From a virus: 64,000 bases of DNA. How positions within the stretch are numbered: position 1 is the first letter of the stretch; each line of letters opens with the position of its first letter. Under the pieces are notes generated by a model. The model made no database searches, was not told the origin of the DNA, and worked only from the letters and a program-made list of their open reading frames with translations. A program made the translations under genes and the position numbers. Below are positions 4,556-50,397 of the stretch, one piece after another. The DNA lies in IMG/VR virus record IMGVR_UViG_3300045988_085064. The stretch is one strand, 5' to 3'.

Positions 4556-4648
4556 GGCGGTGTCGGTTAATGGTAAGCCAGCGGTCTTATAAACCGTTTA
4601 GCTCTAGATTGGGGCAAAATCAGAGTTCGACCCTCTGCGCCGCTACCA
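4556..4648 (+). tRNA. atypical class-II (long variable arm) tRNA, formal anticodon UAU, CCA encoded
   Basis: Manual cloverleaf. Acceptor GGCGGTG/CGCCGCT, D arm GGTT-AATGGTA-AGCC, anticodon arm GCGGT-CTTATAA-ACCGT, 23-nt variable region, T arm CAGAG-TTCGACC-CTCTG, discriminator A plus CCA. Confidence 0.6.
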
Positions 4649-5335: not shown

Positions 5336-5420
5336 GCGGGATTGGTGGAATTGGCAGACACATCTGATTCAAGCTCAGATGCCGTAAGGCGTAGGGATTC
5401 GAGTTCCCTATCCCGCACCA
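5336..5420 (+). tRNA. tRNA-Leu (anticodon CAA)
   Basis: Canonical class-II cloverleaf. Acceptor GCGGGAT/ATCCCGC, D region GTGGAATTGGCAGACAC, anticodon arm TCTGA-TTCAAGC-TCAGA, long variable arm, T arm AGGGA-TTCGAGT-TCCCT, ACCA end. Confidence 0.9.
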
Positions 5421-5512
5421 TTAAGTCCACAGCTTGTTGGATGCATACGGCTTGCTAAACTGAATAGGAATCCAATGCTTCTAATGGGTTGATGCTTAAA
5501 GCCCATTTCCAT

Positions 5513-5607
5513 ATGATAGCAAGTAGCGCAAATTTTATATAAGATGCTCAATGAGAATTGGGGAATGTATATAAGATGAGGTCATGCGCGGCCTCGCTTG
5601 CTATCAT
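5513..5607 (+). ncRNA. closed structured RNA domain D2 in a tRNA-equivalent position
   Basis: An 11-bp terminal helix: ATGATAGCAAG (5513-5523) pairs with CTTGCTATCAT (5597-5607). It is preceded by the same leader hairpin and CCATAT motif as the tRNA-like element at 5726. Contains an internal direct repeat TATATAAGATG twice. Confidence 0.3.
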
Positions 5608-5725
5608 AACCAGTAGTTATGGTTTGTTGACCATTGTTTGGATTACTAGCCAATCGATGCCTAGAGTCGATAAAAACAAATCAATGGCGGTTCTGGTAGG
5701 TTGAGCCTAAAGCCTACTACCATAT

Positions 5726-5799
5726 GACCGTATCAGCTAATTGGTAAGCCCAAGCTGTTCAGAGCAGTTGGAATGCAGATTCAAATCCTGCTTCGGTCA
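5726..5799 (+). tRNA. tRNA-like element, formal anticodon CAG, imperfect
   Basis: Acceptor GACCGTA/TTCGGTC has one T-T mismatch. There is an extra nt between the D and anticodon stems. Anticodon arm AGCTG-TTCAGAG-CAGTT. T arm GCAGA-TTCAAAT-CCTGC has an A-C mismatch. No encoded CCA. Needs tRNAscan-SE. Confidence 0.35.
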
Positions 5800-5805
5800 T
5801 ACGAT

Positions 5806-5987
5806 TATAGGATTGCACACAGTTATGCCCACCATTGTAACTGACCCAGATGCAAACCTAAGAAAATCTTAAAACCCTTAGTAAATAACGCGCGTCACTG
5901 CTAAGGTTGGCTGTTGGTCGAATCTCATCTAGTACCATCCGAAGAGCAAAACTGGAAAATGTGCTCATAGTGCGGTGATAATCCTAT
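5806..5987 (+). ncRNA. closed structured RNA domain D3 (unknown class)
   Basis: ATAGGATT (5807-5814) plus GCAC (5815-5818) pairs with GTGC (5970-5973) plus AATCCTAT (5980-5987). Followed by hairpin ATAGGG (6001-6006) with CCCTAT (6052-6057). Confidence 0.3.
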
Positions 5988-6140
5988 TCCGTGCATTGGT
6001 ATAGGGCTTGGGTAAAGATGACCTTGTAAGTAGTTGATAGTGGAACAATAACCCTATATATCAAGTCAATATGCGCATGAACATTGCGACTTGTTTTAAT
6101 AAAATTTTATTAGAAATTGAAAGGAAATTAAAAGGAATTT

Positions 6141-40735: not shown

Positions 40736-40909
40736 TTACTCCGTGCCTCCCATCACAAGCTCCAGCATCGCCGCCTCCAGCGCCTCCAGTCGCTCCTCCG
40801 CCGTCGGCCCCGGCTCCGGCTGCGCGGCCAGCATGGCGTTGTATTCCGCCTCTTCTTCCGGCGTCATGTTCCGGATGACCCCGTTGTCGCTGATCCTCAA
40901 TTTGCTCAC
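40736..40909 (-). CDS. small protein (57 aa) in high-GC cassette
   Basis: A GTG overlaps the fibre stop. ...MTPEEEAEYNAMLAAQPEPGPTAEERLEALEAAMLELVMGGTE. The inner ATG is also possible. Confidence 0.45.
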   Translation of the reverse strand: MSKLRISDNGVIRNMTPEEEAEYNAMLAAQPEPGPTAEERLEALEAAMLELVMGGTE

Positions 40910-42147
40910 CCCATTTTGTAAATGTTGACGGTCGTCCCGCTGATGATTTTGACGCCGGATGTTTGGGAGTAGATGTATATTTTGTTTGCTTTATATTCTG
41001 CATTTTGTGGGACGTTTTGGGAGTTTTGTGTCCTGTCCGACACCGAGTGGATCGTCCCTCCCAACACAAAAAAGGTCCACCTGGATTGTATGACCGAGTA
41101 TTTGTATTGTCCGGTGACCGTCCCCACCATCATACCGGTGTATGTGTTTCCTTCCGACCCGATCCTGACGTTTACAACAGGTGTTGTAACGTTGGCGGTC
41201 AAATCTCCGTTGTTCGGTACAATCGTCTCACAAAAATACAGCTTGCCCGGCTCAATCGTCAGATCGTTTATTGCCGACATGGTCGTCCCGTCTGCGGTCC
41301 AGGTATACACCAGCTCGATGCCGCTTGAGCTTCCACCGCCCCCCGGCGCGGTCCACAGCTTGCCGTCTGTGTCCATGCCCACGGTCTTGGTCATGTCATC
41401 TGTTTTACTATCAGGTCCAGGAATTTTTTGTAACACACGCGAAACATTGCCGTTAGACATAACGGTGAACTGGGATATGCTATTATTAAAAGTTAGTCCA
41501 GAGAAGAATGCAACCTGCGGTCCTTGTGCCCCAGCAAGATTGTGCATGATAGTAACGTACTGCGCAACCACCCGTTTCCCGGCCTGTATCGCAGCCCAGA
41601 TTTCTGTCGTAGTTTTGTTGCAAACATACGGAGATGCCGTTGTGCCGATCCCGGTAATCATGCAAACGAGAACCCCTGGACTATGGTTTGCCACATAATC
41701 TGCAATACCACCCGAATTGGCAACATTATTATCTGGATCATATACAGATTTAAGCATATCACCAGCTCCAGCTGCCGATAATGCGTCAGAAACAGCCTTT
41801 TCAGATGGAACTTTTGTTGTAGATACACCTAGTGTCTGAGACATATCACTTGTACTAATAGCCCCAATATCAGATGCATTCAGCACCACAGCACCAGTTT
41901 TTGAATTGACGCTAGTAACTGGGGCGGATGTTAATGGCGTAATCGTCTTATCACCAAGCGTAATCACGCCATTATCAATCTTAGCATCAGTAATACCATA
42001 ACCAACTATTGTGGTAGGTTTATTTTTTACATTATCCCATTCAACATCACTAGCTGTGCCGCCTCCTGATTTTACGGCGGCAATTAATTCATCCATTTTC
42101 CCTACATAGGATGAATTTTTTAGTAAGTCGATAGTAGTATCTGCCAT
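40906..42147 (-). CDS. mosaic tail fibre (low-GC N-terminal anchor, high-GC C-terminal domain)
   Basis: ATG 42147 follows GGAGGG. Contains an SVNSKTGAVVL repeat. Composition switches near 41700. Confidence 0.65.
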   Translation of the reverse strand: MADTTIDLLKNSSYVGKMDELIAAVKSGGGTASDVEWDNVKNKPTTIVGYGITDAKIDNGVITLGDKTITPLTSAPVTSVNSKTGAVVLNASDIGAISTSDMSQTLGVSTTKVPSEKAVSDALSAAGAGDMLKSVYDPDNNVANSGGIADYVANHSPGVLVCMITGIGTTASPYVCNKTTTEIWAAIQAGKRVVAQYVTIMHNLAGAQGPQVAFFSGLTFNNSISQFTVMSNGNVSRVLQKIPGPDSKTDDMTKTVGMDTDGKLWTAPGGGGSSSGIELVYTWTADGTTMSAINDLTIEPGKLYFCETIVPNNGDLTANVTTPVVNVRIGSEGNTYTGMMVGTVTGQYKYSVIQSRWTFFVLGGTIHSVSDRTQNSQNVPQNAEYKANKIYIYSQTSGVKIISGTTVNIYKMG

Positions 42148-42165
42148 ATATCCCTCCAAGTAATT

Positions 42166-42993
42166 TTACTCACTCCATACTAAGTTTAGACTATTATCTT
42201 CATTTTTTGTCAGTTTATAATTTATCCCTATATCATTTGGGGTTAATACAACTACGCCTGTTTTACCATTAACTGAATCAACATTGCCGCCAGTAGATAT
42301 TGTCACATCACCAGTCTGCCCGTTTACAGATGTTACAGGATATGGAGGTGGATTACTTATACTATATTGTTTAACATTATCAACATTCCCAAGCCCAACA
42401 TCAGTTTTCCCAATCACCACCGTGCCAGTCTTGCTATTAACGCTCTGAACCGGAGCGGCATTCTTAGCAGCTGTAATATCTACATATTCACTATCGTTCT
42501 CAAGTTGACTCGTTTTAGTCGGAACAGCGGATTCCGTGATATAGCCACTATCATTGGTAAGGTCTGACGTTTTATTAGGAATTTTTGTCCCAGACGGCAA
42601 CGCTCCAACATCTGCCGCTGTCAAAACCACATCTCCTGTTTTGCCATTAACCGACTGCACCCCAGATTCACCAGTGCTTGTATCTGCAAATATGAGCGTA
42701 AACGCTTGAGACATATTACCAAATGGAACAAATACTCTATAGGCATTGCCAACAATAGGCGTACCACCATAATAAGCAATATTGCTATATGTGTTGCCAT
42801 TTATTTTCATCGTACAGACGCTAGTTGATATCTCTGTAACTATGCCACTATATATCACGGCATTATTCTTTGCCGATTTCTCTGCTAAAATTTCAATAGC
42901 ATCTAGTAGTTCATTTGCTTCGTTAATGTTGTACACCTCTATTCTTATAAAAATCCGGGTCAACACCGTGGTATCAACCCGGATATATATCAA
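42166..42993 (-). CDS. tail fibre protein with SVNGKTG repeats
   Basis: VQSVNGKTGDVVL, VQSVNSKTGTVVI, VTSVNGQTGDVTI and VDSVNGKTGVVVL. TTG start overlaps the TMP stop. Confidence 0.55.
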   Translation of the reverse strand: MIYIRVDTTVLTRIFIRIEVYNINEANELLDAIEILAEKSAKNNAVIYSGIVTEISTSVCTMKINGNTYSNIAYYGGTPIVGNAYRVFVPFGNMSQAFTLIFADTSTGESGVQSVNGKTGDVVLTAADVGALPSGTKIPNKTSDLTNDSGYITESAVPTKTSQLENDSEYVDITAAKNAAPVQSVNSKTGTVVIGKTDVGLGNVDNVKQYSISNPPPYPVTSVNGQTGDVTISTGGNVDSVNGKTGVVVLTPNDIGINYKLTKNEDNSLNLVWSE

Positions 42994-45900
42994 CGTCTGC
43001 TAAAAGCTCTCTGGTATGCTAATGCTTTTACATTTTCTACAAATTTCCTTGCATCTGCCGCAGTCTGAATATTCGGGAATGACATAGTAGTATTATTAAA
43101 TTCCATACTCATACCCGCTGGATTTCTATTTGATATAGCAATACCTTTATTATCTATAACAGACCTACCCAGATTCCAAAGATTCTTTGTGATATTGCTT
43201 GGAATAATTCCATCACCAGAGTTAAGTACCCTAAGTTCTGGGCCATTTTCACCAACCATATGAAGCCCACTTGTGCTAGATAATGTTCCATTTGCATATC
43301 CAGTAATAGAACTTAGTTTCTTATTGATTTCGTCCTGTTGCTTGATTACCTTGGCAAGTTCAGCGTCGCGTTTTGCCTCAATCACAGATTTCTTTGCTTC
43401 AAGGCTCTTGCTACGATTGTATTCATTTAGAGCTTCTTGCGCCGTGGCAATTGCATCATAATCTTGAGCGTATTGATATCGTCCATCCTTAAAAGTATAC
43501 ACCCGCTTAGAACGAGCCTCTGCTAGGTTCTTTAGCAACCCCTCATATTTAATTTGGTCTTCTAACTTATTGTTTGTATCTTCAAGCGCCTTAATCTCTG
43601 CATTATACTTATCATTGATTGCGCTCTGAGTCTCTTTGAGGGCTTTAAGCTGCGCATTCAAATTATCCTTTATCTGGGATTTTTCCCATTTGTATATCTC
43701 CTCTTGATATTTCCAATATTCCTTTTGATACTCTTGCCGCCCTTGGAAATATTTTTTATTCATCTCTTCAAGCTCTTTATAATATTGAGCTTCAGAAATT
43801 TCATCCATTGCCAAAGCGTGTTTCTTGGCGTCTAACCAAGCATCAAATTCATCTTTCCAAATATCTTTAGAACTCTTACTAGAACCTGAAGATGAAGATG
43901 AACTTGAACCAGATGAGCCAGAACTACTAGCAGAAGAATAAGACGAAGTAGGATATGAGCCACTTGTTTCCCTGCTTTTAGACGTTTTAGGGATTTTGCC
44001 CTTAGCCGTAATAGGCGTTAGTCTCGAAACAAGGTCGAACGAAACTCTTGGGATGTATCCAAGTCTATGTGCTTGAATCGCGCCATGTAATTTTTTCCCA
44101 TTTAGAATAGCTCTAGTCTCTTCTGCCGTATACACATAATCTCCATCGTGCATCTGAGTAATTGTCGGCATACCATTACCAGCGATATATGCCTCATTAC
44201 CACTTTGGATAAGCTCAGGGCCTTCCTCATTTACAAGAGATGGCCCTTCTTTTGTTCTACCGCCATCTGCATTGACTTGGTATCTTGTGTCGCCAAGATT
44301 CTGAATGTTATTCTTTGCGTTTTGCGCTTGATTGGACACTCTAAGTAGTTGATCGCCAAGAGACCTAACCTGACTCGTAATACCCGACAGAGACGTACTA
44401 TTCAAATCTTCCAACTCAGATGTCATCTCTGCCGTTGCAGATTCCGTCTCACCAGCTTTTTTGATAATATCGTCTATGCTCTCAGGTACATTTGTCAATC
44501 TTACATTATCCGCATCTTCCAAAGAACGCTTCATGTCTAAGATGGCATCCTTAGAATAACCAACCTCAGATAACCCCTCTACAACCTTAGTAAAATCGAT
44601 TTCATTAACGCCATTTTTGACTGTAACAATAGAACTATCAAGATTGCTAAATGCAGATATGAGCGCATCAATGTTCCAATCAACATCCGCTCCATATACC
44701 TTGCCAGCCTCAATAAGTGCCCAAAGCTGAGATGTTGTCAGCCCCATAGAATTGGCAAGTTGGTCAAAATCAGTAATATTATAGGATATAGAGTCTCCCG
44801 TTGTATCTAATGTCGCGCCAACAAGCTCTCCAGCATCTGCCAATTCTTGCATAACTGTAACAAATCCAAGCCCGCCCGATTCAGCGTCAGAATACAAGGT
44901 TGACAATCTATCCATAATACCGGCCATATACTCAGCCTTATCAGAAGCGTTGTCAAATCTAGTTAAAATGTCATCCCCGACAAGTTGAGATAAGGCATTT
45001 CTGAATGTTAGAGAGCCAATTTGCCCAGCTTCAAATTCGTCATTAAGAGTTGAGAACACAGATGCAAGCCCCTTAAAAGCATCATCATAGTCGCCCGTTT
45101 GGGACATGGCATTGTCAAAATTCGTTTTAGCATCTGTCGCGCCTTGAATCATGTCGGCCCATCTTAGAACCGTTTCAGCAGACGATTTGAATTTAGAATC
45201 CATATCGCTGGTCGCATCGCCTATACTACCAGCTAGATCGCTAAACCTCTTATATAGCTCATAGACTTCATCCTTGGTAATAGATAATCTTTGAGCAATA
45301 GTATCAGCAACATCAGAAAACGACCGCCCCTCAGAATTAGCAACCGTTTGTACCACTACCAATTGCTGATAACTATTATATTCATCCATCAAAGCATCAG
45401 ATACTTGATTCCCAGCATCTATCTGTTGCTTGATGATTTCATAATATTGTTTGCCGCTTTGAATCGCATTGTCAACATCTTCGGCCCAGCGCTTAGTTTG
45501 TGCTCTGGGACTATCAAATATATTCTTAGACATCCCAGAATAGGTATATAAAGATTTGTAATATTCAGCATTGGACTTTGCGGCCTCGTTCTGAGATACA
45601 GTATTTTCCTTAATGGCAATTCCATATTTCTTAGCGGCTTTGGCAAGAGCCTCGGTATCTGCCTCATAATCGCCTGTTACCTCAATAAGGTCAATCAATT
45701 TGGCCTTTTGAGCAATTATAGTTTGGCTATTTGTAGCGGACGCTATCGTAACAGTGATCTCGGCATCAGCAATATCCCATAGAGCATCAGACATATCTTT
45801 GTATACCTTAGTATTATCAATACCAGATATATTAATATTTGAATTCTTGGTGCCAACAGATACACCTTCAACCCTATCCTTGCTAAGGATTGACGCGCCT

Positions 45901-46833
45901 TCAGCAATTTGAGCTTTCTGTTGGATATCTAGCAACTTTTCATAATATGCAATGACGTGCTCTAGGTATTCCGCTTCTTTATCAATATCAGCGGTCCTGT
46001 CCTCCCATGGCGTTGCATTGATTTCCTGAAGACTGGACTTAGCATCATCGTATTTGCCGCTAATTTCTTGGACTTTATCTCCAAGTTCATTATATTCATC
46101 AATATGCTCTTGGATGGATTTATTTGCTTCGGCAATAAGCCCAGATATGCCTCTAAACACCTCGGCTAATCCAGCCACAGCCACAGCAACAGCAGCTATA
46201 ATTACCAATGTTTTCGGAGCTAATAATGTTGCAAGTAAGCCACCGCCACCAGCAGTTGCCGCTAATGTGGCACTCAATTTAGCCATAGCCGCAATTATAG
46301 TGCCAACAATGCCAACTAATGCAGTTAATGCCGCAGCAAATCCACCTACACGGGCGATAACAGCCACAACATCATTATTGGCAAAACTAAGCATTGTATG
46401 CCCAGCATCAAGGAAACCGCTTACTAAATCCTTTGATAAGACACGATTGGAAAAATCCTCAAATTCAGCCTTGAGCAGTTGTTCTTTAGCTCCAAGACTT
46501 TCCATATACCGCTCATTTTCTTTCATGGCCGAGCCATTGGATTCTAGTGCTGTATTAGTTGCATTGATAGCTGTTTGGTAATTCTTTAAAAGAGCGGCTA
46601 GATTTTGAGTTTGAGTGGTTCCTGCTTGCTGTTGCAGATAATACATCTGCTCATTCTTAGTTAATGTCGGCCAGATTTTTGCTACATCAGTCAATACATC
46701 ATATAGACTGCGAATCTGACCTTCGTCATCTTTTATCGCAATTTCGTGTTCTTGATACCATTTTGTAAGCGCCTTACCAGTGTCAGATGATTCATCTACG
46801 ACTTGGTTTAAGCGGGCTTGTACAGTGATAAGT
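42990..46833 (-). CDS. tape measure protein, exon 3
   Basis: The frame is open from 46832 (after an in-frame TGA at 46835-46833). Sequence LITVQARLNQ..., TM/Gly-Ala region, long coiled coils. Confidence 0.85.
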
Positions 46834-48385
46834 CAATGTATTAACTCGGATTCGTCACATCCGATAAGGAGAATTTATTTATAAAATCAGTTAACAAGAC
46901 ATCGTGCTCGTCTTTTTCTAACACCCAAAATGGAACCCGCAATAACGGAATGTTATTATCTTCACAGTATTTAGTTTTTATCTCGTCATTCTCTTTCACT
47001 GTCTCATATTTCTTTTCTGCTTGTTCTCTATATTTTTTACCACCAAATGAAACTGGCCTATAATGTCCTATTCCATCAACCTCAATGCAAGCATTAAAAT
47101 CTGTTAAATAAAAATCAAATGGTAATGCTCTTTTATTGACACATCTATCAAATGTTTTTTCTTTTTCATATAGTATATTATTATTATTTAGCCACAGCTC
47201 TACTTTTGCAGAAATAGCAGATTGTTTCATTCTACATTCATTGCATTGATACTTTCCATCTGCGAAATGATATGCATCAACCTTAAAGTCGTTGCCACAA
47301 GAGCATTGAACAATAAATGGCGATTTTACACCATTGTATTCTTGATTATAAATGGTACAATCCCAATCTTTTAGAAAAGCATATATCCTTAAATTATCAA
47401 GAGCGTATGGGTTTGATTTGCCGAATCTCTCAAATGAACACCCGTTATATAGCGAGGTAACACTAATAAGCCCACGATAACCGTTTTTGTCCTGAACAAC
47501 AACATTATCTTTTGACCTTATCGTTGAATCATTCAAAATACACAATCCAGATTTCCTAGCAATTTCATGATATTTGTTAGAATCAATATGGTTTGTATTG
47601 ACTTCTCCCCTACTTCTTTTTATCTTGTAACATCTATTGCAGCATTTATCATCTTTTGAATAATATTTATGCCATGTTGATGTAAATTCACCGCCACATA
47701 TTCCGCACTTAAACATGATTGGCATATCAATGTTTGATATATCTTCTTTTTTTGTTAATAAAATAGTACCATACTCATTTGTCTTTTTGATATATAACAT
47801 CATATTGTCATAAAAATATGGGTTTTTTGTGCTAAATGTATGCTCTACATCCACAGAGTAACGTTTTTTATATGTTAAAGTGTGTTTACAAGTGTGGTAG
47901 CTTCTTTTGTATTTATATCCATCAGAATCAACACAGTCATATTTATAATCTACGCCACGCGCAATATCTTCCAATAACGTTAATCCAACTTGTTCAAATA
48001 ATTTCCTTGTTTCTTCTATTGTTATTTTTTTCGACATAAATTCTCCTTCTTGCATTTTCATGCAATGTTTAGACTATTTCTTCATCTCATAGTATTGAGA
48101 GTCTATCATTTCGATTTAAGGGAATCTCACCCACAAGCTTAGACGTACTTGCCCTACTCCTATTGTGATATAGTCACCAATGGGATAGTCGTTTGACTCA
48201 CTCCTATTCGGAGCTTTGCGCCCAAACATCCATTATAAAATACTTAGGTGTTTCCACCATATATCATCTCTATCGTTTTTAATACTTTCGCACATTCACG
48301 CTTGTCAATCTTTCAAGACTACGTTGTAGTGATAGAGCTTTAGGAATTACTGGGTTTAGATAGATATCATGAGGCATATTACTAT
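46834..48385 (-). mobile_element. group-I-like intron 2 (1552 nt) with endonuclease ORF
   Basis: 5' exon GAGGU pairs with internal GCCUC (48375-48371). The last nt is G (46834). Shares core blocks and covarying helices with intron 1. Confidence 0.7.
46841..48037 (-). CDS. intron-encoded homing-endonuclease-like protein (zinc ribbons + PD-(D/E)XK/Vsr-like C-terminal domain)
   Basis: ATG 48037 follows AAGGAG. Several CxxC...CxxC modules. C-terminal LPFDFYLTDFNACIEVDGIGHY matches the nuclease-type motif. Confidence 0.55.
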   Translation of the reverse strand: MSKKITIEETRKLFEQVGLTLLEDIARGVDYKYDCVDSDGYKYKRSYHTCKHTLTYKKRYSVDVEHTFSTKNPYFYDNMMLYIKKTNEYGTILLTKKEDISNIDMPIMFKCGICGGEFTSTWHKYYSKDDKCCNRCYKIKRSRGEVNTNHIDSNKYHEIARKSGLCILNDSTIRSKDNVVVQDKNGYRGLISVTSLYNGCSFERFGKSNPYALDNLRIYAFLKDWDCTIYNQEYNGVKSPFIVQCSCGNDFKVDAYHFADGKYQCNECRMKQSAISAKVELWLNNNNILYEKEKTFDRCVNKRALPFDFYLTDFNACIEVDGIGHYRPVSFGGKKYREQAEKKYETVKENDEIKTKYCEDNNIPLLRVPFWVLEKDEHDVLLTDFINKFSLSDVTNPS

Positions 48386-48774
48386 ACCTCTAGGCACTTA
48401 TTGTTTGCCCTACTTCCCTTGGCGGCGTTCCTCGTGATTTCAGTCATAGCCGTAAGCATACCAAGGGATTGTTCAAATGTATTATTGCCTGTTGCCATAG
48501 CAGCAGACATATTACCTAGGTTCTGTGCTAATTGCCCAGATGAAACAGCATAATTATTTGATACAGCATTAACCGCATCGATAATATGCTCAGCATTATC
48601 CGCTTCAATATTGAACGCCTTCATCTGCGCAACAATAAATGATGCGCTATCTGCCGCAGAAACCGATTCATCCGCTACGTTCTGAAAAGTAGTCGCAACT
48701 TTAGCTAGAGTTGCCGAGTCAGAATCATTAAAGCTGTTTTTACGGAATTGAGTTGCGGCCTCAACCATCTCTGA
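48386..48774 (-). CDS. tape measure protein, exon 2 (TP901-type core)
   Basis: SEMVEAATQFRKN...NVADE...AVSSGQLAQNLGNMSAAMATGN...TEITRNAAKG. The 5' splice site could alternatively lie at 48410|48409. Confidence 0.8.
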
Positions 48775-48795
48775 CGGTTATAAATTATCCAATGC

Positions 48796-48882
48796 TTACT
48801 TGCCCTTCCAGCAAGCAACTGTATATGCAATCATAAATGTAAACCAGCCAACAATGAAAATTGTAGCGTAGAAATCTCCCAT
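48796..48882 (-). CDS. 28-aa hydrophobic micro-ORF inside intron 1
   Basis: TAATG coupling to the upstream ORF. MGDFYATIFIVGWFTFMIAYTVACWKGK. Confidence 0.3.
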   Translation of the reverse strand: MGDFYATIFIVGWFTFMIAYTVACWKGK

Positions 48883-49112
48883 TACAGCTTCCCCCATCTT
48901 TCATCGTCACACCCATATTCAGCCGTTCTTTTCTGCTCTTCTTCAGCGGTTTCATAATGAATGTTGTACTGTTCATCATCAGGCTCTTTTTTAATAAGCC
49001 CATGGTCGTGGTTGTTACGAATACCATACACAATCATCTTGATTAGTGTAACCAGTCCAACAATAAAGAACGCTGGAACAACAAAAATAAAAACCATAAT
49101 TGAGAGAATCAT
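48882..49112 (-). CDS. 76-aa single-pass membrane protein inside intron 1
   Basis: AAAGGA SD, then ATG 49112. N-terminal TM MILSIMVFIFVVPAFFIVGLVTLI and an acidic C-terminal tail. Confidence 0.45.
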   Translation of the reverse strand: MILSIMVFIFVVPAFFIVGLVTLIKMIVYGIRNNHDHGLIKKEPDDEQYNIHYETAEEEQKRTAEYGCDDERWGKL

Positions 49113-49145
49113 AATGTAACATCCTTTCTTTTATTTGGTGTCTAC

Positions 49146-49174
49146 ACTATAACACATATTAGATAATTTGTCAA
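49146..49174 (-). promoter_or_regulatory. consensus promoter inside intron 1 (P13)
   Basis: On the minus strand: TTGACA (49174-49169), 17-nt spacer, TGtTATAGT (ends 49146). Confidence 0.55.
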
Positions 49175-49520
49175 GGGGTTTTTAATCCCTTCCTGAATAT
49201 TTCTTCGCCCTATTTTATTGGAGGGTCGCCCTGTATATTCGATTGACACATCCCTCATCAGGACTTCGCGCCCAATTTGCCCTTTTGTCCCAAATATTAT
49301 ACATTATTTGTGACAGATTCTTTAGGTTTTTCAACCATGGAATCATCCTTATCGTCTTTCTGCTTTCGCACTAATTGTTCATTACTAATGAACATATCAC
49401 ACTCAGGCATATCTCATCCTCATGTTGTAGTGATAAGGCTCTTGAGGCTTTCAAGGGTTTAGGGGCTGTTCTCTATGCTGCTTTACCATCGCAACATACC
49501 GGCTCAGACCGATTTGGTTT

Positions 49521-49892
49521 ACCGGTTCGTCCTACTTCCTTGCCCATATTGGCAAGTTTCTGCGTATATGAATCAAGCGCCGCGCCAGTTAAATCCGACA
49601 CCTTTTTAAATTCTGTTTGTGCCGTGTCAAGCGCTTTAACTTGAGTATACATTTTGCTTGTAACATCCACAACGGCATCGAATACTTGTCGTAATTGTTG
49701 ATACGTTATAGATAGCTCTTTTGTGGCGTTATCAAGCGATTGCGTTGCACCAGTTGTTTCTTTTATTCCTTTACCATTTACGGTTGTTTCAACGTCAACG
49801 CTATATTTCCTAGAGCTTAGGTTTCTTTGTATTTTTTCAAGATCGAGTACAGCATCGAGAACTATACTATAATTACTATTTGTTCCAGCCAT
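49521..49892 (-). CDS. tape measure protein, exon 1
   Basis: 124 codons ending ...TEFKKVSDLTGAALDSYTQKLANMGKEVGRTG. The unspliced frame stops 15 codons later. Confidence 0.8.
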
Positions 49893-50397
49893 TCATCACA
49901 CTCCCTTTTTTTATTTGTGAGTAGGCTATAAGGATTCCTTCTGCGCAATCATCCTCATTCTTTTTGCTACTTGGGGCAACCCATGCCAATTCGAGGCCAA
50001 ATTCTTCATTCGCCATCTCTATAGCTTTTTTCTTCAGAACATCTCTTTGTAAACCAGCTCTTGTACCATCAAAGAGATTAAGGTCGCCACGCCATTTACT
50101 TGGCATCAAGAAGCATGGCTTTATCTTGAAGCCAGCGCATAATGCTAATATCACACCCTGTACTGCGCCCAATTTCTCTATGGTAGACGCGCCTTTCTTT
50201 AATGGTACTTCTTCAGCATAGAGAATTGTCGGTTTATACTGTTTAAATATACTTGACAATTCCATAGTAAGCCCCATTACCCTATCGTGCCAATCATCGC
50301 CCTTTGGCTTAATTGTACCATATGCAATGAGTTCTCCATTATCAAATATGGACCATCCTGTAGAAGATGTGCTAGCGTCCAATCCGGCTATAATCAT
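49876..50397 (-). CDS. ruvC: RuvC-family Holliday-junction resolvase
   Basis: MIIAGLDASTSSTGWS (catalytic Asp), YAEEV, and DDCAEGILIAY. 173 aa. Confidence 0.8.
   Translation of the reverse strand: MIIAGLDASTSSTGWSIFDNGELIAYGTIKPKGDDWHDRVMGLTMELSSIFKQYKPTILYAEEVPLKKGASTIEKLGAVQGVILALCAGFKIKPCFLMPSKWRGDLNLFDGTRAGLQRDVLKKKAIEMANEEFGLELAWVAPSSKKNEDDCAEGILIAYSQIKKGSVMNGWNK

Follow-up and report, generated by a model that had tools for sequence, protein, structure and literature searches.

Three open reading frames (ORFs) in the viral record IMGVR_UViG_3300045988_085064 of the IMG/VR database, a gut-phage-like genome, are, in our interpretation, pieces of a single TP901-type tape-measure gene that is split by two paralogous and mobile group I introns, a reading to which we assign a probability of about 85%. 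The whole stretch of 64,000 nucleotides (nt) that was analysed is referred to as the window, all positions are window positions, and the features described lie on the minus strand unless otherwise indicated. The same interpretation had been proposed from the letters of the DNA without database searches (hereafter the sequence-only reading), and it is now supported by homology to introns certified by Rfam, by covariation in the predicted helices, by the presence and absence of introns in relatives and by an endonuclease encoded in the second intron.

The three pieces were recovered from the ORF listing in the places where they had been reported. Exon 1 (49521-49892) comprises 124 codons (372 nt) and ends in ...GGACGAACCGGU; the ORF at 49892-49473 reads past the exon, the sequence before the read-through being ...LANMGKEVGRTG, and a Pfam search with exon 1 gave a weak match to TMP_3. 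Exon 2 in its corrected form (48407-48774; 368 nt) ends in ...AGUAGGGC, its 3' end being fixed by the homologues, and the region is covered by a listed ORF (48768-48382) that begins with MVEAATQFRKN. The TP901-type core had been correctly placed in this second piece, which scores 45.6 bits with the Pfam family PF10145 (PhageMin_Tail), above the cut-off of 33.2. Exon 3 (42990-46833; 3844 nt, stop codon included) begins with A|CUUAUC... and contains the ORF 46694-42990, which represents the long C-terminal part; the frame stays open upstream to 46832, the first start codon is located 46 codons into the piece, and no Pfam family was identified in this exon. With the corrected boundaries, the exons sum to 372 + 368 + 3844 = 4584 nt, open throughout, and would encode a protein of 1527 amino acids (aa), in place of the 4605 nt and 1534 aa calculated earlier. 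The spliced protein has the two features of the TP901 family, PF10145 above the cut-off and a length of more than 1000 aa, and the peptides that would span its junctions are GRTGSEMVEAATQFR (one junction) and GSRALITVQAR (exon 2/exon 3).

A search with the N-terminus of the protein as spliced in the sequence-only reading returned 115 homologues, most of which carry PF10145, and the protein also matches tape-measure proteins that are annotated as such in phages of Enterocloster and Bacillus. The nearest cultured relatives of the protein are found in phages of Enterocloster bolteae (38% identity), in which the gene is uninterrupted across the matched region; a megablast search with the whole locus against phage genomes yielded no matches. 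The comparison with intron-less homologues that had been suggested as a check was made by local BLAST and by alignment of 20 of the 115 homologues, and it supports a single gene, confirms the first junction exactly and corrects the second. Uninterrupted homologues cross both junction regions (for example P0003, P0009, P0010 and P0036), and five homologues (P0001-P0005) pass from exon 2 into exon 3 without a break. Junction 1 is present in the uninterrupted homologues as GRTG|SEMVEAAT with no gap at all, and junction 2 reads ...GSR(A/G)|L(I/V)... in each of the 20 aligned homologues, taking the form ...AAKGSRA|LITVQGRLNQ in the closest of them (P0001; 81% identical). Many other homologues are ORF fragments that end just past SRG in unconserved tails (NKSLSV, DMSLCA, K or D, each followed by a stop), and further fragments begin at the M of SEMVEAAT. 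In these truncated proteins, the gene call was interrupted by introns at the insertion sites of the two window introns, here called sites 1 and 2.

Intron 1 (48775-49520; 746 nt), identified from its sequence and from profile searches, turned out to be exactly as first described. The exon ends in ACCGGU, for which a guide GCCGGU is located 17 nt downstream, forming a P1 helix with the U.G wobble at the splice site, and the UCUGA in front of the guide is the complement of the UCAGA that opens exon 2 (P10). The internal guide as read directly (49498-49508) thus consists of UCUGA for P10, a G opposite U(-1) and CCGGU opposite ACCGG. The ribozyme core of intron 1, P1-P9, extends over 49175-49520, and that of intron 2 over 48053-48406; both were delimited by alignment, a helix check and pair counts, and for intron 2 also by the family profile. 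The last nucleotide of the intron is a G in both cases (48775 in intron 1 and 46834 in intron 2, the latter as had been claimed), and a terminal G is also found at the equivalent position in four other site-2 introns and in four more members of the family (L071, L051, L035 and L076).

The assignment to group I is carried by a chain of homology to introns that Rfam does recognise. The group I model RF00028 scores 95.9 bits on an intron of the Enterocloster phage CB457P2 (L002; OP172754.1, 8417-8747), located upstream of an I-TevI-like 'intron-associated endonuclease 1', and 62-74 bits on introns in three other relatives (L017, L024 and L015), while the gaps in the tape-measure genes of the relatives hold matches of 55-84 bits. 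A profile built from four Rfam-certified introns matched the 64-kb window in two places only, 48350-48054 (E = 7e-30) and 49455-49315 (E = 2e-10), that is, inside intron 2 and intron 1. Likewise, an nhmmer profile of the intron family identified intron 2 (E = 2e-76) and intron 1 (E = 1e-62) and nothing else in the 64 kb, so that no third copy of the intron was found in the window. When the profile was built from the full set of 12 Rfam-certified introns of the fetched loci, an alignment that was probably too heterogeneous, the window gave no match. Furthermore, the core of intron 2 is about 71% identical in blastn to a stretch within the RF00028 match of CB457P2, and matches at about 71% tie it to Staphylococcus and Enterocloster phages, in which the matching stretches are unannotated and lie just upstream of genes called "intron encoded nuclease"; blastn also ties it to the inside of an annotated intron in the RNA-polymerase gene of phage MarsHill.

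Covariation was examined in an alignment of 13 introns to which P2, P3, P4, P5, the P5 arm and P6-P9 had been assigned by hand, with P3 and P7 as a pseudoknot. In this structure of 59 pairs, 90.6% of the cells are paired, compared with 36-46% when the partners are slid, and double changes occur in 42 of the 59 pairs; the observed values were reached in none of 500 shuffles. Pairing across the 13 introns is complete in P3 and P6 and amounts to 98.5% in P7 and 88.6% in P8, although the alignment has gaps at P3 (GCCC/GGGC) and P8 (CCCU/AGGG) of intron 1, which were recognised solely by eye. The first pair of P7 (columns 296:431) is G-C in all 13 sequences, and GAAGAAAUAGUC matches the Rfam consensus UgAAGAUAUAGUCu, an agreement at the level of sequence alone that bears on the putative guanosine-binding pair in P7 and on J8/7. 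Extra helices between P7 and P3', known as P7.1 and P7.2, are a mark of subgroup IA, the phage type. Hairpins do occur between P7 and P3' in intron 2 and in the related introns of site 2 (CCC...GGG enclosing GGUGA/UCAC, CAAG...CUUG and GGG...CCC), two being extra in intron 2, and intron 1 lacks them. Both sets of compensatory changes noted in the sequence-only reading are real, as are the sequence blocks said to be shared by the two introns: CUCUAUC/GAUAGAG against CCUUAUC/GAUAAGG corresponds to P5a, and GGUG-GAAA-CACC against GGUU-GAAA-AACC to the side hairpin of P5. The two introns are 53% identical over 306 aligned core positions, and the term paralogous is therefore fair, albeit for old paralogues.

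Two earlier placements of core helices were rejected on the basis of the Rfam alignment of L002. P4 had been set at GUGCGAAAG/CGCA, of which GUGCGAAAG instead belongs to the P5 arm, where it forms a hairpin with a tetraloop; P3 had been set at AUCU/AGAU, its place being taken by UCUAUC/GAUAGA. Other kinds of interruption were ruled out as well: a group II intron, as neither a GUGYG start nor a domain V was found; an intein, as there are stop codons in every frame of the gaps; an IStron, as the gaps are without ORFs of the IS200/605 type; and a programmed frameshift or translational bypass, as the gaps are 0.7-1.6 kb long.

The distribution of insertions among relatives in IMG/VR indicates that both sites are polymorphic. 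Four loci (L005-L008) have one insertion of 826-913 nt, at site 1 only, four (L009-L012) have none at either site, one (L015) has an insertion at site 2, and the contigs that encode truncated homologues provided three further site-2 introns (L027, L029 and L030). Site 1 is thus occupied in L005-L008 and also in L016-L023 and empty in L009-L012, while site 2 is occupied in L015, L027, L029 and L030 and empty in L005-L012. Intron 2 shows both of the features expected of a mobile intron, an ORF for a homing endonuclease and presence or absence at the same site; site 1 varies too, though intron 1 is without an endonuclease ORF. The endonuclease ORF of intron 2 (46841-48061; 406 aa) is preceded by the Shine-Dalgarno sequence GAAGGAG just past P9 and extends into a conserved 3'-terminal hairpin, CGGAU-GUGACGA-AUCCG (46847-46863), which lies 12 nt before the terminal G and is kept, with covariation in its stem, in L015, L027, L029 and L030. 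The protein matches PHROG 559 'HNH endonuclease' (1e-39), PHROG 9084 'homing endonuclease' (7.5e-29) and PHROG 7140 'intron encoded nuclease', and is 55% identical over its full length to the ORF of the site-2 intron in L029 and 38% identical to that of L015; searches of Pfam and of the sequences in the PDB gave no family and no relative. Its C-terminal domain recurs in other members of the intron family. The part of the window that encodes this domain (47059-47207) also shows 71-78% DNA identity over 100-135 nt to genes of phages that have little in common (Erwinia pEa_SNUABM_49, Klebsiella phiKp_21 and KP13-7, Clostridium vB_CpeS-1181 and Staphylococcus St14.GH, in the last of which it is called 'restriction enzyme'), a pattern that fits a widely travelling endonuclease module.

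The boundaries of intron 2 required revision. The sequence-only reading had placed the cut after GAGGU (48386|48385), with GAGGU/GCCUC as P1, a U.G wobble and an intron of 1552 nt, and it is true that this pairing exists, that the junction is in frame, that the 21 nt in question contain no stop and that the site defined by homology has no U at -1. The protein would in that case carry the insertion NNKCLEV, seven residues that are seen in none of the 20 aligned homologues, the closest one included, and the junction is therefore off by 21 nt. The presumed P1 corresponds instead to a P2 hairpin, GAGGUAU-AGUAAU-AUGCCUC (48371-48390), which is present in all 13 aligned introns with 97.8% of the cells paired and double changes in six of the seven pairs, including intron 1, where it takes the form AUGUUGC...GCAGCAU beside a separate P1. 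The relatives point the same way: in L015 there is a stop codon between the homology-defined junction and P2, in L027 the position equivalent to the GAGGU/GCCUC wobble is a C-G pair, and in intron 2 itself a P10 sequence (AUAAGU) and a guide G stand directly upstream of the hairpin, the order that a P1 on the upstream side would predict. The fifth pair of P2 (columns 35:51; 48386 with 48375 in the window) is a U.G wobble in 11 of the 13 introns, which makes P2 look like a mimic of P1 and was the source of the misplacement. We consider it very unlikely that the cut after GAGGU is the true one, and the same applies to its weaker form, in which GAGGU would serve as a cryptic or alternative site since the C-G site is a poor one. 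The intron 2 that we favor instead extends over 46834-48406 (1573 nt) and has a C(-1)-G pair in P1. DNA of intron-less site-2 alleles (in L005-L008) reads AGAGCG|CTTATT (L005), CGCGCA|CTT or CGTGGA|CTT, and in the five site-2 introns (those of the window, L015, L027, L029 and L030) the exons read ...RGG(G/C) A ... G A CUU. An A thus follows both candidate cut sites and the boundary is fixed only to within this one A, but the requirement for a terminal G sets exon 2 at 48774-48407, intron 2 at 48406-46834 and exon 3 at 46833-42990. The register of the internal guide (48392-48401), which comprises AUAAGU for P10, a G opposite C(-1) and CCU opposite GGG, was taken from L071 and L076. AUAAGU is complementary to ACUUAU, the first six nucleotides of exon 3, and in L029 the corresponding sequence is AACAAGU and the exon begins with ACUUGUU, which shows that P10 covaries with exon 3.

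Several observations weigh against the interpretation of the locus as a gene with two active introns. RF00028 gave no match at the gathering score in the whole window, no match at E<=10 on 3.2 kb of the locus and no match to the ribozyme of intron 1 searched alone; intron 2 reached 37.0 bits, below the cut-off of 50, and this only when its 396-nt ribozyme was searched by itself. The U.G wobble in P1 is held by "virtually all" group I introns (PMC2504315), and the earlier statement that the junctions follow group I rules is valid for intron 1 but fails at the 5' site of intron 2, where the exon ends in GGGC| and C(-1) faces the guide G. Moreover, the single-nucleotide ambiguity at the junctions of intron 2 is settled only by the requirement for a terminal G and by analogy to L071 and L076, and splicing of both introns is a prediction from the DNA. 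The sequence-only reading had itself named the failure of a covariance-model search to find a group I core as grounds for refutation, and taken literally that is the result; we nevertheless consider the missed threshold to be overridden by four other lines of evidence, namely the link to certified introns, the certified introns in the relatives, the profile searches and the covariation, which together argue for group I. One could take the low scores, the C in place of U at -1 and the loss of any endonuclease from intron 1 to mean that the introns are decayed relics that do not splice, in a tape-measure pseudogene of a defective phage or in the assembly of a non-viable variant. It is hard to reconcile this idea with three exons that are open, in frame and conserved relative to the relatives, with core helices maintained through compensatory changes, with an intact endonuclease ORF that matches that of L029 from end to end, or with the recurrence of C(-1) in about 20 distinct members, which occupy several sites and are flanked by intact exons, a recurrence that would be unexpected if each had decayed independently, and we find it very improbable. 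Even less credible, to the point that we give it hardly any weight, is the notion that the three pieces are separate genes, translated independently and assembled as subunits without splicing. Public gene calls do treat them as such, in that P0001 starts from the M of SEMVEAAT and P0046-P0064 end just past SRG. The break points vary among the relatives, however, and are absent in some; piece 3 would have to do without a start codon over its first 46 codons; the tails past the break points are not conserved and result from reading on into the introns; and the gaps contain structured RNAs homologous to group I introns. A gene split by two paralogous group I introns is thus the interpretation that we prefer.

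According to this interpretation, the tape-measure gene, a late gene, would be transcribed as a single pre-mRNA in which both introns fold into a group I core that comprises P3-P9 and in which P3 and P7 form the pseudoknot. Intron 1 would bind the exon 1 end ACCGGU to GCCGGU and align UCAGA on UCUGA as P10. Intron 2 would pair the exon 2 end GGGC with the guide GCCU, a Watson-Crick C(-1)-G pair replacing the wobble, and align the exon 3 start ACUUAU on AUAAGU. Splicing would join 49521|48774 and 48407|46833, and the endonuclease of intron 2 would spread this intron to empty alleles.

The unusual 5' splice site of intron 2 is shared by a larger family. A scan of IMG/VR for the family motif CTAAAMCCAGTAANNYCTAAAG identified 57 loci (within L034-L090), of which 44 contain tape-measure-like coding sequence. 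The pair between position -1 and the guide was read by eye in the distinct sequences, and the tally is approximate: C-G in about 20, roughly half of the distinct members, among them intron 2 of the window; the canonical U.G in about 10-13, among them intron 1; G-C in five to seven, including the four site-2 relatives, in which G(-1) is paired with a guide C; and U-A in one (L041). Two members provide the analogies for the register used above. L071 is canonical, with GCUGGU| on the guide G-CCAG and the 3' junction ...UUUG|AAAACA, and in L076 UUGGC| is placed on the guide GCCAA; since the first intron nucleotide (G) and the first nucleotide of the 3' exon (U) differ in L076, the terminal-G rule forces the exon to end in C. 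L046 (GGU|) and L042 (GGC|) have the same site and the same guide G. The number of C-G members and their intact exons argue for good splicing, and we infer that the C-G site would be functional. If the C-G members do splice efficiently, the lineage recognises its 5' splice site in a different way from the textbook group I ribozymes.

We also observed that an intron at another position of the gene (L035/L090, after ...DIQRA|, at query residue ~317) has a start and guide, AAACAAUAGAUGCCU, that closely resemble AAACAAUAAGUGCCU in intron 2 of the window (48392-48406), and the exon ends agree as well, CGGGC| at the L035/L090 site and AGGGC| at that of intron 2. The near identity of start, guide and exon end suggests movement between sites that share the motif RGGGC|A.

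Intron 1 appears to carry a cargo of a different kind. Directly after its P9 there is a promoter-like site of the sigma-70 type (49146-49174; TTGACA-17-TATAGT with an upstream TG), which has 11 of 12 matches and is the best in the region. It is followed by a ribosome-binding site and an ORF of 76 aa (48882-49112) with a hydrophobic N-terminal helix and an acidic tail, ...EYGCDDERWGKL, and by a second small hydrophobic ORF (48796-48897), MGEAVMGDFYATIFIVGWFTFMIAYTVACWKGK, with the counterpart MNNLATVFIIGWFVYIILFTISCVRK in L005 (module region 5394-6000). Of six relatives that were inspected, five (L005, L006, L008, L016 and L026) have an equivalent promoter-like element in the corresponding position, whereas L039 has an ORF resembling a homing-endonuclease gene there. 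The site-1 introns of these five relatives, although diverged, share a module in which the promoter-like site and a ribosome-binding site precede small hydrophobic ORFs of the membrane type (between one and three of them), whose acidic tail includes an (E/D)(Y/W)G motif, and no homing endonuclease was identified in them or in intron 1. Pfam gave no family for the small ORFs of intron 1 and PHROG none for the 76-aa ORF, for which the homologue search returned only two near-identical proteins. The module represents a conserved cargo other than an endonuclease, and the cargo of both introns is predicted to be expressed. If this reading of the module is true, the intron would serve to carry an accessory gene of the 'moron' type.

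Introns tend to accumulate in the conserved TP901 core, which is a hot spot for them. Three to five or more insertions are present in the tape-measure genes of L016-L026, and the break points recur at query residues ~94, 124, 151, 192-195, 230, 247, 317-325 and 369. In L026 (4669-10990), five RF00028 matches at the gathering score are located within about 6 kb of the gene. The same intron family is also found in tail-module genes upstream of the tape-measure gene (L005 396-760, L006 1611-1930, L016 2234-2440 and L029 811-1095), and the upstream intron in L029 adjoins a gene of the YomU_Tube family. We tentatively suggest, as a possibility that falls somewhat short of an even chance, that these introns form a large phage lineage of group I specialised on the tape-measure genes of phages in gut Firmicutes, about half of whose distinct members have C-G in place of the wobble at the 5' site (G-C in the site-2 relatives) and in which a site-1 sub-lineage has replaced the endonuclease by a promoter-driven module for small membrane proteins.

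In the neighbourhood of the gene, an ORF of 173 aa (49876-50397) with a RuvC-like N-terminus overlaps the start of the tape-measure gene by 17 nt, and its counterparts in relatives have a weak Pfam match to RuvC. Two ORFs on the 3' side (40906-42993) contain repeated SVNGKTG(D/A/V)V motifs, which are typical of tail fibres. Farther away, on the plus strand, two tRNA genes with long variable arms (4556-4645 and 5336-5417; 49-51 bits on RF00005) represent the only Rfam matches at the gathering score within the 64-kb window.

For annotation, the findings imply that the three ORFs should be merged into one tape-measure protein of 1527 aa, the protein that sets the length of the tail. Public gene calls are similarly fragmented across the whole phage clade, and many of the 115 homologous "proteins" are exon fragments.

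Landthaler and Shub reportedly described, in 1999, three group I introns in orf142 of the Staphylococcus phage Twort. In the Bacillus phage Moonbeam, the terminase and DNA polymerase genes have two group I introns each (PMC4299906). Our locus resembles these phages in that one essential phage gene is interrupted by several group I introns, in which endonuclease genes are often embedded; the host genes differ, and the likeness is one of arrangement.

The closest precedent is the description of group I introns at three sites (TMP-IVS1, TMP-IVS2 and TMP-IVS3) in the tape-measure genes of lambda01-like prophages in Bacillus cereus and B. anthracis (Tourasse and Kolsto, 2008; NAR 36:4529, PMC2504315). 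TMP-IVS1 and TMP-IVS2 are IA2 paralogues that are 80% identical and have their P1 and guide adapted to different sites, and some of the introns lack complete endonuclease genes (PMC2504315). As in that system, where the introns are of the phage IA type and patchily present among related prophages, our group I introns occupy more than one site of a tape-measure gene for more than 1200 aa, are paralogous, and have an endonuclease gene in one case and not in the other. Compared by description, our locus differs in the host clade, the nearest cultured relatives being Enterocloster phages, in the much greater divergence of the introns (53% versus 80% identity), in the C in place of U before the 5' splice site of intron 2 and in the promoter-linked ORFs for small membrane proteins in intron 1. 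The earlier view of the arrangement as unusual was thus overstated, both with regard to the precedent from 2008 and to the relatives in which the gene holds three to five insertions or more; prophage tape-measure genes with more than one related group I intron have been known since then, and the locus is not new in kind. It adds, rather, a well-resolved example of intron paralogues retargeted within one gene.

The intron of CB457P2 is related in sequence, with about 71% nucleotide identity to the core of intron 2 over 163 nt and the same P2-P9 architecture, including an extended P5 arm and hairpins after P7. It differs in that it resides in another, unannotated gene, has a canonical P1 (UGGAU|, U.G) and is associated with a different endonuclease family. 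Splicing of a bacterial group I ribozyme after a nucleotide other than U has a precedent in the group B IStron BcISt1 of Bacillus cereus, which was experimentally found to be spliced after a G (Tourasse et al., 2014; PMC4227781). That element is a chimera with a transposon of the IS200/605 type and does not interrupt a structural gene of a phage in frame, and its anomaly is described as a one-base shift beside a U-G pair, not a wobble replaced by C-G. Two testable oddities of our locus deserve to be followed up: the C-G in place of U.G at the splice site, which recurs across the family, and the cargo of the site-1 introns, in which a promoter-like site and small membrane-protein genes take the place of the homing endonuclease.

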